Shown one piece after another: positions 25,322-36,621 of a DNA stretch of 64,000 bases. Position numbers and translations under genes: made by a program. The stretch's first letter is position 1. The number at the start of each line of letters is the position of its first letter. This DNA is from a virus. The DNA is taken from positions 1 to 64,000 of the IMG/VR virus record IMGVR_UViG_3300044691_000371, one strand, 5' to 3'. The notes beneath the pieces are model-generated. The model was given only the letters and a program-made list of their open reading frames with translations, was not told the origin of the DNA and ran no database searches.

Positions 25322-25687
25322 TCACAGAACAATAACCCCTACTCTGTACTTTGAAATATTTTCGGTTGCAAAGGCATTAGTTACCTCTCCGTTTAATGTG
25401 CTGACTACATAGCCGTCTCTAATATAGTTCCTGTAAACGTCTGTTTGCTTTTTGGGGTCTTTCCAGTACGACCAACACTCTTGAGGATGCATAATAGTAT
25501 CCGGTATTTTTTCGAAGTCTTTGAGGTTGTTTCGTACAGCGTGGAAACTTTTTGAGGTAAATTTTACGTTTGTTAGAAGTTTAGCACATTGAAATATTAT
25601 CGTGCCTTTTATGTCGCTGTGGTATTGGTGTTGCCAAATATGGTACTCTTCGATGAAGTGGTGAAGTTTGTTTTTATTTACGCTCAT
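25322..25687 (-). CDS. Putative PBECR2-type (Barnase/EndoU/ColE5/RelE-like) nuclease domain
   Basis: IPDTIMHPQECW...RNYI...terminal YRVGVIV resembles the I..T+..P.E.W...Y+...R.G.+ pattern of MuF-associated PBECR2. Confidence 0.5.
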   Translation of the reverse strand: MSVNKNKLHHFIEEYHIWQHQYHSDIKGTIIFQCAKLLTNVKFTSKSFHAVRNNLKDFEKIPDTIMHPQECWSYWKDPKKQTDVYRNYIRDGYVVSTLNGEVTNAFATENISKYRVGVIVL

Positions 25688-26244
25688 GGTTTAATTATGT
25701 TTAATTTAGCAAACTCTTTATATAGTTTTAAAGCTTCTTTATTATATGCCAATGCAGCCTCTTTTTCGGTTTTGAAATATCCTATATGTTTGCCTAAAAT
25801 TGATGATTCCCATGTAGGATATTCCTTAGTTATAACAGTTCCATCTTTTAATATCCATTTTGTTTTTTTCTTATTTAAGTGAACTCCTTTATATTCAGAT
25901 GTTGTGTTTTTATTTGCATTTCTATTCCGATTATTTTCGCTCTTTGTTGCTGCTCTTAAATTTTCAATTCGGTCATTTAATGGATTTCTATCAATATGAT
26001 CTACAAACTCTGGCATGTATCCGTGATGATAAAGGAAAATCAATCGAGAAGTTAAATATCTTTTCCCATATATACTAACTCTGTATCTTTTAGCATTGTA
26101 ATAAACACATATACATCCAAGTCTTTTGCCTATTTTAACATATGGATTTATTTTTTTCTTCCAATATAAATATCCGTCTTTATATTCAGTATATTTAAGT
26201 AATACTTGTTGTGTTAATTGAGGTTTTTCTTTTAAATTTGTCAT
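25684..26244 (-). CDS. HNH homing endonuclease with AP2 domain
   Basis: VDHIDRNPLNDRIENLR...ENNRN; clear paralogue of 7213-7773. Confidence 0.9.
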   Translation of the reverse strand: MTNLKEKPQLTQQVLLKYTEYKDGYLYWKKKINPYVKIGKRLGCICVYYNAKRYRVSIYGKRYLTSRLIFLYHHGYMPEFVDHIDRNPLNDRIENLRAATKSENNRNRNANKNTTSEYKGVHLNKKKTKWILKDGTVITKEYPTWESSILGKHIGYFKTEKEAALAYNKEALKLYKEFAKLNIIKP

Positions 26245-26309
26245 ACTTTTTAAATGTTTTGCGACATAAAAGTATGAAAATCCGGCGATTATATCAAAGG
26301 ATTTTTGTT

Positions 26310-27158
26310 TTAATCTATATTAAAAATATCTCCATTCGCTTCATTTGCACTCGATAAAGCCTGAAAATAGCTATGCCCTTGACGTGGTAAAATTCCCTGA
26401 TTTGCACTATTAAACCTGAATTGAGGGTCTACATGCTCTAATGATACTTTTGCTTCTTCGTTTGTTAAAACAGATTTCCCATTGTCTTCAAGGTACTGAT
26501 CGTCCACTTGTTCGCTTCCGCAATCGCAATTAAATCCATTTTTTGGGTGACAATCGTCCCCTTCTGGATCTCCTATTCGATAGATATTACCAACCAATTC
26601 AAGGTGTTCGATTCTCGGATTTGCTGAATTTGTTTCTAAATATATCCAATAAGGGTATAACTCTTTATTTTCACGATATGATATAAATTGTTGACCTGTT
26701 ATTGCTAATCCTATAGCCGTATCGTATTCTATACGAAGCCATGTTTCTTGAAATATATTTACTACTTCTTTACAATCTCTTTTATATTGGCTAAACCCCT
26801 TACGAACGCCGTCTTCATTGAACAACAATTCTTTCATCATTTTATTTTCAGCAACGCTCTTACTCGCTGAAAATTGGGTTGAGTTCAATAAATAACGCTC
26901 ATATAATGAGGTATCACGAAATAAGTCGAAATCTGATTTGATTTTAGTTTCGTCTTTCAGAATATCGAAAAAGGTATTTGCATATTCTTTGAAAGTAGGC
27001 AGGTATATCCCTGTGCCTCCATCAAATACGAATTTGGCTTCGTCATCTGATTTTTCTGAAAGCCTGTCAATTGTATGATCTATTTTGGCCTTTTGTTTCT
27101 TGGTCGGTTTCCTCGGTTTAGAATCAAGGTTGACGTATTCACTACCTAAAAAAATCAG
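26310..27158 (-). CDS. MuF / SPP1 gp7-like head morphogenesis protein, probably reached by frameshift from portal
   Basis: WLRIEYDTA, YPYWIY, R.EH..L.G, P.NGFNCDC, F.FN motifs. The frame stays open 90 codons upstream of the TTG at 26888 with no ATG. Confidence 0.8.
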   Translation of the reverse strand: MIFLGSEYVNLDSKPRKPTKKQKAKIDHTIDRLSEKSDDEAKFVFDGGTGIYLPTFKEYANTFFDILKDETKIKSDFDLFRDTSLYERYLLNSTQFSASKSVAENKMMKELLFNEDGVRKGFSQYKRDCKEVVNIFQETWLRIEYDTAIGLAITGQQFISYRENKELYPYWIYLETNSANPRIEHLELVGNIYRIGDPEGDDCHPKNGFNCDCGSEQVDDQYLEDNGKSVLTNEEAKVSLEHVDPQFRFNSANQGILPRQGHSYFQALSSANEANGDIFNID

Positions 27159-28588
27159 TTTTTTTTTAAAGCCATCTGAAAAGTAGCATCCGGCTTTACC
27201 AATTTATCCTGCGTTGGTTGTGGCATTGGCTCAAAGAAATCGGGCATCATTCCGTTCTGCTCAAAAAACCCTGGAGTTAACCTGTAACCGTTAGCGTTAA
27301 GGGTCGCCCCCATTACTTGAATGTCAGCTATGGTTAACTGTTTTGGCCTGTAAGCAAACCACCATTTATCTGGATTAGGAATGTTTTTATAGAACTTTGC
27401 TATTTTTATTTTAAAGCCTTTTATGTTGTTTAAAGTCGCTAATATGTAAGGCATTAATTCGGCAACCCTATCATCCAGTGTACGTTCTTCGACCTCTCCT
27501 AAAGCTCTATTACCACCTTTACCGCTTGATTGAGTTAATGAACGACCGAAAACCATTTCCTGAATTTCGCCCTTTTGTTCTTGATTAAACTCTTGATAAA
27601 TTTTATGTAAACTTCCTGTCGCGCCTGTCTTTTCAAATTCTAATTCGATTGACTTTTGCATTTGCCCATCATTATCTAAAGTATATGGGTAAACTAATCC
27701 CTCTTTTGGATTAAGGTTTGAAGCTAATGCAACTGCATCATTTTTGTAATTATTCTTTGGTTGACCGTTTGCATCTAAACTTCCGTCATCTTGTGGGTAA
27801 CCGATTGTAAGGAATGGGAACGCTGTTCTCCGGCCTGCTGCAATCCAGTTGTTATTATTTTCGTTCATTTCCACATAGCTATAGGCTATAGCTTGCATCC
27901 ACCCTAAAAAGTCTTCGTAATTATCAGATGGTTGAACGAATAAAAGATTGTCGTTTTCTTCAAACAATGCCCCGTCATAAAAACTGAATGTATTGGCTTT
28001 TAACATCCTATTTATCGGGTCAATCTGCTGCATTGGGTATTTGTAGCATTCTTCATTCACTGGGTCAAAGTTCAAACCGCTGAATCCCCAGAAGTACGAA
28101 TAAAGAATTTCGCGCCTCATTTTTATTTGCCACTGCTTGCTGCAAAGTTCTTCTGAAAGGTCTGGTATTTCTTCTCCGTTTTCATCAACAATGTAGAATG
28201 GTACCCTGTCCATGGCTGCACCAAGCTTTAGAAACAACGATCTTACAAATGGTGACTTCTCATATACCCAACTTGTTAAAGTCGCGTATAATTGAGTATA
28301 ACCCATTTTAACGGCTTGGTCAGATGCTTCTCTCACGCGGGTTGTATCCCAAGCCACATAATATTGACTTGGGTAGACCCATGACCCTACATTTTGACCG
28401 CTTTGTTTTGGAATAAAGAAAGGGTTTACTATTGGCGAACCGCTTGCTGTTCGTGTTCCAGGCTGTACAGTACCAAAGCCACCCCCACCGGGTGCTTTAC
28501 CTGTTACACCAACGCCTGTAGTATTTCCAAATGGCCCGCTGAATGGCCCCTGATTTGCTAATTTTGATGGTCTTCCCCTCTTTGCCAT
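27155..28588 (-). CDS. Portal protein (Mu gp29/DUF935-like)
   Basis: Position between TerL/gp36-like and MuF; YFWGFS, LGW....A, G..LT..G..G.RALGEV.ER. Confidence 0.8.
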   Translation of the reverse strand: MAKRGRPSKLANQGPFSGPFGNTTGVGVTGKAPGGGGFGTVQPGTRTASGSPIVNPFFIPKQSGQNVGSWVYPSQYYVAWDTTRVREASDQAVKMGYTQLYATLTSWVYEKSPFVRSLFLKLGAAMDRVPFYIVDENGEEIPDLSEELCSKQWQIKMRREILYSYFWGFSGLNFDPVNEECYKYPMQQIDPINRMLKANTFSFYDGALFEENDNLLFVQPSDNYEDFLGWMQAIAYSYVEMNENNNNWIAAGRRTAFPFLTIGYPQDDGSLDANGQPKNNYKNDAVALASNLNPKEGLVYPYTLDNDGQMQKSIELEFEKTGATGSLHKIYQEFNQEQKGEIQEMVFGRSLTQSSGKGGNRALGEVEERTLDDRVAELMPYILATLNNIKGFKIKIAKFYKNIPNPDKWWFAYRPKQLTIADIQVMGATLNANGYRLTPGFFEQNGMMPDFFEPMPQPTQDKLVKPDATFQMALKKN

Positions 28589-28938
28589 TATGAATTATCC
28601 GCCTCGCTTTGCTCTTTGTAATCTTTTATTAATTCAATTAAAGCATCATTATGGAATATTATTTTAACCCCATCTTTTGTTTCAATTTGAAAATTTGAAC
28701 CAACTTTTGAAGTCGTTATATCTTCTTTTCTTATGATGATTATTAAGTCCATTAGTAAATATTATCTCTACGATCTTCCCTTAATTCAATACCACAAAAA
28801 TAATCACAACAGTCTTCAATCCAATAAAATGTATTTTTACCTGTAATTATATAAACTGGTATAAATAACGCTACTGATATTAAACATACTGGAATAAAAC
28901 CTAAAGCTGCTAAAACTCTTAATATTCGTATTTTCATT

Positions 28939-35998: not shown

Positions 35999-36621
35999 AA
36001 AGTCTTTTCAATTTCTAACCATGCTAATTTATCCTGTGCGATTATCTCCTGAAAATTCTTTAGTTTTTGGCAAGTCTGTGAGCCATTATGCCAGTGTTGT
36101 GCTATTAAATTAGCTTTAACAATTGTTCTATAACCGGCTTTTCTTATTTTTGTGTATGCCCATAAATCTCCGAACCACACGAGAATACTTTCTGGAATTG
36201 GGTAAACTAACTTTGCCATTTCTTTATTTAATTGGATGAAGACGCCAGGAGTTCCATTAAAAACTATTTCGTCCTGTTTATGCGTACCGTCACTTGGGAT
36301 TGCACTTATGTTATCTTCCAAATGTTTGCTCCATCCTGCCGTCATAATAAGATCGCTATTCATTATAATTAGTTGATCATAGTGGCTTTTCAAAAAGTAA
36401 TCTATTATTTGATTCCAAGCCGCATTTACGTAGATGTTACGCTCATTCTGAATTACCTTGACGTTTGGATATTCAAACCACATTTGCTTTATAGCTTGCT
36501 TTACATCTATTTCAGAACCGTTGTCAATTATTAACAGGTCAGTCTCTTGTATAACTGATTTGAAGGCTTTTAAACAGGTTTCACCGTTATACAAAACCGG
36601 AATTCCGCAAAGTATTTTCAT
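35995..36621 (-). CDS. GT2-family glycosyltransferase
   Basis: IPVLYN, LIIDNGS, N..VNAAWNQ, IMNSD, WFGD.W, H.HNGSQT. Confidence 0.85.
   Translation of the reverse strand: MKILCGIPVLYNGETCLKAFKSVIQETDLLIIDNGSEIDVKQAIKQMWFEYPNVKVIQNERNIYVNAAWNQIIDYFLKSHYDQLIIMNSDLIMTAGWSKHLEDNISAIPSDGTHKQDEIVFNGTPGVFIQLNKEMAKLVYPIPESILVWFGDLWAYTKIRKAGYRTIVKANLIAQHWHNGSQTCQKLKNFQEIIAQDKLAWLEIEKTL

Follow-up and report, generated by a model that had tools for sequence, protein, structure and literature searches.

A conserved adenine run at the portal–MuF junction as a predicted programmed slippage site in a clade of uncultured phages

In an uncultured soil phage, the gene for the portal protein stops one codon past an uninterrupted run of nine adenines (A9), and the gene for the minor head protein MuF continues from this run in the −1 frame without a canonical start codon near its beginning. 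The junction lies in the first 64 kb of an 84,826-base IMG/VR record (IMGVR_UViG_3300044691_000371; CheckV completeness estimate ~90%), a stretch of 64,000 nucleotides referred to here as the window; both genes are on its minus strand, and all coordinates are window positions. We consider it highly probable that the A9 run is a programmed slippage site, by which the locus would produce the 477-aa portal protein plus a minority of 759-aa portal–MuF fusion chains. The occurrence of slippage, its rate, the enzyme involved and the consequences for assembly are what we infer from nucleotide and protein patterns in the window and its relatives. An earlier note on this DNA had suggested that a minority of portal subunits are ~760-aa fusions made by slippage, a proposal now supported by the conserved layout of the junction, the coding character of the start-less linker, the loss of the run in relatives whose MuF has its own ATG, and the existence of constitutive fusions elsewhere.

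The portal gene (28588..27155, minus strand, taken as the zero frame) encodes a Mu-type protein of 477 aa, as identified from the list of open reading frames (ORFs) and by a match to the Pfam family Portal_Mu (PF06074; E 1.7e-14; score 54.3 bits, cut-off 23.9; model positions 10-331 of 336). Its 3′ end reads GCT TTA AAA AAA AAC TGA on the minus strand, as the earlier note had described it, with the A9 run at 27167..27159 and the TGA stop (27157..27155) one codon past the run. The run is read as TTA AAA AAA AAC in the portal frame and as AAA AAA AAA in the MuF frame, and T_TTA_AAA, A_AAA_AAA and A_AAA_AAC are all in the portal frame at this point; a slippery heptamer of the X_XXY_YYZ type is therefore present in the zero frame of the window, and A_AAA_AAA or A_AAA_AAG is found in all relatives. 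Directly 3′ of the portal stop there is also a run of seven T (27148-27154, minus strand; overall arrangement A9-CTGA-T7), which encodes the conserved I-F-L of the linker described below. Pairing of A9 with T7 across the CTGA as a hairpin at the stop was considered and rejected, the structure not being conserved in relatives.

The MuF frame, at −1 relative to the portal, is closed by a TAA (27206..27204) located 36 nt upstream of the run and then remains open for 297 codons from stop to stop (27203..26310, minus strand; ORF list and homologues). The first canonical start codon in this frame is a TTG (26888..26886) 90 codons past the run. Between run and TTG extends a linker of 90-91 MuF-frame codons (27158..26889), rich in lysine and proline and beginning L-IFLGSEY, which contains no ATG, GTG or TTG; the earlier reading of a frame with none of these codons before 26888, closed by a TAA upstream, is thereby confirmed from the sequence. 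Residues 136-228 of the open frame (26798..26520) match the Pfam domain Phage_Mu_F (PF04233) at 30.7 bits, the cut-off being 29.6, and the PHROG matches of the frame include phrog_220, minor head protein. The gene is situated immediately downstream of the portal gene, which is the location rule for the MuF family (PMC5576092). Joining portal, linker and MuF by a virtual slip gives a product of 759 aa.

The start-less linker evolves as coding sequence, under purifying selection. Homologues of at most 71% identity span 96% of the open MuF frame (below, P-numbers denote protein homologues and L-numbers related contigs). The linker codons are 68% identical to those of L043, the nearest relative for which DNA is available, at a ratio of nonsynonymous to synonymous differences (pN/pS) of 0.28; across relatives, pN/pS of the linker ranges from 0.28 to 0.62, compared to 0.31-0.53 for the rest of MuF. 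Between lineages pS reaches 0.7-1.0, meaning that synonymous sites are saturated. Initiation at TTG 26888 corresponds to the truncated 192-aa product of the gene-caller, a protein on record as P0004, and this TTG aligns with an internal conserved leucine of the homologues.

Relatives were gathered by protein-guided and pattern-guided scans of IMG/VR and the JGI metagenomes, yielding 16 distinct lineages with both portal and MuF, whose portals are 41-70% identical among themselves. Contigs of representative genomes were also scanned and held no relative, and so no prophage copy; against isolated phages, blastn gave no match and tblastn gave matches of ~25% identity only. The arrangement noted earlier in the window recurs throughout this set. 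An uninterrupted run of A9-A11 occupies the same place in all 16 lineages (A9 in one, A10 in 13, A11 in two), and the MuF frame is at −1 in 15 of them and at +1 in one. The zero-frame portal stop lies 0-4 codons past the run in the 16 lineages, ending 4-15 nt after it, and the MuF frame begins with KKK-(I/V/L)(L/V)(L/I)G(S/R)EY. Past the run, no ATG, GTG or TTG occurs for 7 to 90 codons depending on the lineage (more than 40 in most), and a long start-less −1 ORF overlapping the end of the zero frame is seen in the window and in 15/16 lineages. Furthermore, when the intervals in which both frames are open are compared among the lineages, they intersect on the run only: the −1 frame of L065 becomes open 2 nt into the run, and in the window and L041 the portal stop ends 4 nt past it. 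Variation in run length (9, 10 or 11) never brings portal and MuF into the same frame.

Homopolymer counts in the genome were compared with those expected under a first-order Markov model built on its own sequence. The A9 run is the sole homopolymer of at least 9 in the 84,826-base genome (G000 in these counts), where the model predicts ~22 such A/T runs; this scarcity, together with recurrence of the same arrangement in relatives, puts the layout beyond chance. In each of five related complete or near-complete records, one to four runs of at least 9 are present, none of which exceeds the portal run in length. Codon choice points the same way in diverged lineages: two of ~50% G+C, in which AAA accounts for 47-59% of lysine codons, still keep A10 and A11, and the chance of three lysine codons all being AAA in 11 lineages is ~6e-7. 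Because synonymous sites are saturated, because an all-AAA outcome is so improbable and because no other run of this length exists in the genome, the run is kept in diverged relatives beyond the needs of the protein sequence. Elsewhere in G000 the longest homopolymer is at most 8, long runs being strongly avoided genome-wide. Other A/T runs of 9-10 do exist in related genomes (G003:C1:48100-48109; G001:C1:34228-34236 and 36481-36489; G002:C1:37740, 56526 and 93522; G004:C1:4387 and 12901), and these might likewise be sites of slippage, for instance within genes for tail assembly chaperones.

Relatives lacking the run are informative in turn. In the portal tree, the slip lineages constitute one well-supported clade, with L012 and L014 nested within it; in both of these contigs MuF has its own ATG, the first ~40 linker residues are gone and no run longer than A6 is present. 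The loss is thus correlated, the run being missing where MuF starts at an ATG of its own. The closest MuF homologues (P0003, P0005 and P0008) have a Met start ~30 residues upstream of the junction, and their junction lysine residues permit a run of at most A7. Their N-terminal piece (FE..PPPP...KK) resembles the C-terminal tail of the window portal, and the gene boundary may lie further upstream in these phages.

Outside the clade, both alternative arrangements of the two genes are represented. Separate genes occur in Winogradskyella phage Peternella_1 and in Bacteroides Hankyphage p00, where the MuF ATG overlaps the portal stop. In-frame proteins combining Portal_Mu and MuF are encoded by the IMG/VR contig L018 (851 aa) and by Porphyromonas phage BK068094 (a 'portal' of 853 aa with PBECR2), and fused portal–MuF genes have been described in Microbacterium phages of subclusters EA3/EA5/EA8 and cluster EB (PMC7302621). 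Since constitutive fusions exist in these other phages, a portal with a C-terminal MuF is, by analogy, a viable protein. The window is itself no constitutive fusion, as its frames differ by −1 and the TGA ends the portal frame, and a longer-protein search for an in-frame portal–MuF relative found none. The slip clade, as its junctions are read here, sits between the 'separate' and the 'fused' solutions.

How the frame would be changed can be outlined as follows. By default, most expression would yield the 477-aa portal, ending at the TGA one codon past the run. In a minority of events, either RNA polymerase would add one A while transcribing the run, or the ribosome would slip back one base on A_AAA_AAA/A_AAA_AAC; both routes would lead into the −1 frame and to the same 759-aa portal-KKK-linker-MuF fusion. 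The part of the earlier note that dealt with slippery heptamers holds only for the A-run itself: A_AAA_AAA is conserved in all lineages (A_AAA_AAG occurs in three, L002, L024 and L041), whereas T_TTA_AAA and A_AAA_AAC are not conserved, and the element that is kept is a stretch of at least nine A's. This run is the only conserved nucleotide element of the junction. Between portal and MuF, neither a terminator nor a surplus of promoter-like sites was found, the sigma-70/terminator scan being at chance level, and copies of the Bacteroidota −7 box TAnnTTTG show no enrichment in the window and do not occur on the coding strand over 28794-26310.

Several observations weigh against programmed slippage. 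Across 11 lineages, no shared or unusually stable fold was detected in the 80 nt downstream and 50 nt upstream (z −1.9 to +0.6), no conserved Shine-Dalgarno (SD)-like motif was seen in the junction sequences of the lineages, and an Rfam scan at the junction gave no relevant match. With no conserved stimulator, a classical stimulated cassette for −1 programmed ribosomal frameshifting is not supported, and the efficiency of slippage may be low. The lineage with the opposite offset, represented by two contigs of identical sequence here (L074:4014-4023 and L075:1325-1334), carries A10 with MuF in +1 and stops in both other frames shortly past the run, and is a poor fit to a simple −1 ribosomal slip; it may reflect a one-A contraction or error of A11, or a mechanism serving either offset. 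In addition, a look for RNA sequencing runs containing this DNA listed none, and the A9 length was read from contigs rather than raw reads, so that minor length variants are possible. Lastly, near-cognate start codons occur past the run in the window (CTG ATT), in L001, L043, L067, L004 and L036, and in others.

Such codons would allow MuF to be made separately from a CTG, ATT or ATA just past the run, with no fusion, the A-run acting as an A-rich unstructured leader or as a site of termination-reinitiation coupling in a host without SD pairing. The closeness of the portal stop, as in coupled genes, fits this explanation, and homologues P0009 and P0017 are called with a Met right at the junction. 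However, no position of a start-like codon is conserved among the lineages, and none is found near the run in L002 (GCG GTC TTT TTA) or L065 (TCA ACC CAA TTA). A translational enhancer would need A-richness, but not at least nine uninterrupted A's held against codon bias, and separate initiation leaves unexplained both the −1 offset shared by 15/16 lineages and the length changes that never bring the genes in frame. Moreover, those relatives that do start MuF separately use ATG and have lost the run. We accordingly regard independent initiation, although the strongest of the alternatives, as unlikely.

Homopolymers are error-prone and mutable, and the true DNA might instead contain A10 and encode a constitutive fusion, obscured by a homopolymer or assembly error, or the population might hold a mix of A9 and A10 genomes. 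That the run length was judged on contigs, that constitutive fusions exist elsewhere and that L074/L075 differs by an apparent single-A change all lend something to this explanation. Against it, the run is free of indels in three independent contigs: a Logan contig of 40.6 kb, which probably derives from the source sample, shows no differences over 26300-28600; a 151-nt contig from a different study, spanning 27068-27218, shows one substitution and no gaps; and a 319-nt contig from a third study, ~91% identical and covering 26941-27237, shows no gaps. In none of the 16 lineages, which come from different metagenomes, do portal and MuF share a frame, and in 15 the offset is the same, −1, where random length errors would scatter; in addition, the portal-frame stop 0-4 codons past the run is always kept, which a constitutive fusion would not do. 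An A10 genome or an A9/A10 mix is therefore very unlikely. Finally, it is scarcely credible that MuF is decaying or N-terminally truncated, expressed if at all as 192 aa from TTG 26888 with the upstream frame and the A-run as leftovers, for although gene callers report exactly this product (P0004) and an HNH insertion has already cost the window MuF its C-terminal domain, the 91 codons that precede the TTG show conservation and purifying selection (the L043 comparison above), the TTG matches an internal leucine in homologues and the start-less layout persists across lineages with saturated synonymous sites.

Given programmed slippage at the run, the same observations bear on what slips. A ribosomal slippery heptamer needs only 7 bases. 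For bacterial RNA polymerase, nine A/T is given as the threshold for efficient slippage in a review on recoding (PMC5009743). The absence of a stimulatory structure, the one +1 lineage and the fact that every run has at least nine A's together tilt the interpretation towards RNA polymerase slippage or unstimulated poly-A slippage. Judging from these patterns, we give the polymerase a narrow edge over the ribosome as the main contributor, and both may act. A broader reading, to which we assign a little better than an even chance, is that the signal is ancient and predates the divergence of the portals to ~41% identity; that it operates mainly by polymerase slippage on runs of at least nine; that it sets the fraction of portals with a MuF covalently tethered within the capsid (in relatives, MuF-nuclease or toxin cargo); and that other runs were purged because they too would slip.

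Downstream of the junction, the MuF frame of the window stops where MuF of relatives continues into a C-terminal domain. At this spot sits a free-standing HNH endonuclease gene (26244..25684, minus strand; Pfam HNH_3, E 3.9e-15), and the ATG of a 121-aa ORF (25687..25322, minus strand) overlaps its stop. This ORF is a homologue of the C-terminal PBECR2-type domain, matching residues 322-434 of P0005 with 47% identity (E 1e-37), and PF18810 is flagged in the same C-terminal region of several homologues. The position of the HNH gene, combined with the homology of the downstream ORF to the C-terminal domain, indicates a MuF-effector gene split by a homing-type endonuclease. Inteins (PF14890) are found inside MuF of several relatives (L002/L003, with a 634-aa MuF frame, and P0046-P0053); together with the HNH insertion, they mark MuF as a repeated target of selfish elements in this clade.

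What a low-frequency fusion could accomplish is suggested by the biology of MuF. MuF proteins often bear C-terminal toxin or nuclease domains. Many of the MuF homologues collected here likewise carry PF18810, PF03496 or inteins. The model MuF protein, SPP1 gp7, is a portal-binding protein of which each capsid contains one to a few copies (PMC6316719, PMC5576092), in agreement with the premise of the earlier note that MuF/gp7 proteins are low-copy and portal-associated. In the dodecamer, fusion subunits would be built in alongside plain portal subunits, and since the portal C-terminus faces the capsid interior, a few MuF copies would thereby be placed inside the procapsid at the portal, where free MuF/gp7 acts in other phages. 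Low-frequency fusion would bring MuF to the portal vertex in a few copies, with no need for it to bind there as a separate event, and slippage would fix MuF stoichiometry.

Our literature search, the coverage of which was incomplete, found no publication on recoding between portal and MuF, and the word 'portal' is absent from the available portion of the recoding review PMC5009743. If the prediction is true, no recoding event would have been described for a portal gene before, and MuF loading would have a third evolutionary solution, beside separate genes and constitutive fusion. The conserved recoding sites so far listed for virion genes are few, chiefly those of tail chaperones and of some capsid proteins, and portal/MuF would join them. 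Slippage would also offer a simple genetic means of loading internal or ejected proteins, often nuclease- or toxin-bearing, at the portal vertex in small and fixed numbers. Annotation pipelines currently call a 192-aa truncated MuF or miss MuF, and the slip site would correct the gene model across an uncultured clade. The combination of a homopolymer-only signal, avoidance of runs and one lineage of opposite offset would also make this clade a natural test case for polymerase versus ribosome slippage, applicable to hosts without SD-driven translation.

Among known recoding systems, the frameshift cassettes of E. coli dnaX and of IS911/IS3-type elements combine A_AAA_AAG with an SD-like element and a hairpin. 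The portal junction resembles these in having a zero-frame A_AAA_AAA/G heptamer and an extension in the −1 frame, and differs from them in that it has no conserved SD-like element or hairpin, that its run is at least 9 rather than 7 long, and that one lineage needs +1. The dnaX gene of Thermus thermophilus (tau/gamma), in which programmed transcriptional slippage occurs on nine A/T (reviewed in PMC5009743), shares with it an uninterrupted run of at least nine A/T within coding sequence, two products per locus without the need for an RNA structure, and avoidance of long runs otherwise in coding DNA. In Thermus, however, unshifted reading gives the long product and slippage a truncated one, whereas here the predicted slip extends the product into a second gene; moreover, the present case concerns a pair of phage virion-protein genes, and slippage in it is predicted from sequence.

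The closest parallel in position is the −1 frameshift of the tail assembly chaperones G/GT, present in lambda and most long-tailed phages (Xu, Hendrix & Duda 2004, cited in PMC7302621). There too, the 3′ end of a morphogenesis gene contains a conserved site of recoding, which appends to a fixed minority of the protein a C-terminal extension that has no start codon. The differences are that the genes here are portal and MuF, that a homopolymer takes the place of varied heptamers, and that the partner is elsewhere a free-standing, well-known gene. In SPP1 (gp6/gp7), Mu (gpH/gpF), p00 and Peternella_1, portal likewise precedes MuF, which is an internal head protein bound to the portal in low copy number (PMC6316719, PMC5576092); unlike in the window, MuF of those phages starts at an ATG of its own and enters the capsid through non-covalent binding to the portal. 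The Microbacterium, BK068094 and L018 fusions join portal and MuF, in that order, in a single chain, as is predicted here, but they do so in a single in-frame ORF that gives every subunit a MuF, whereas in the window and its relatives the frames differ and the plain portal would be the default product.

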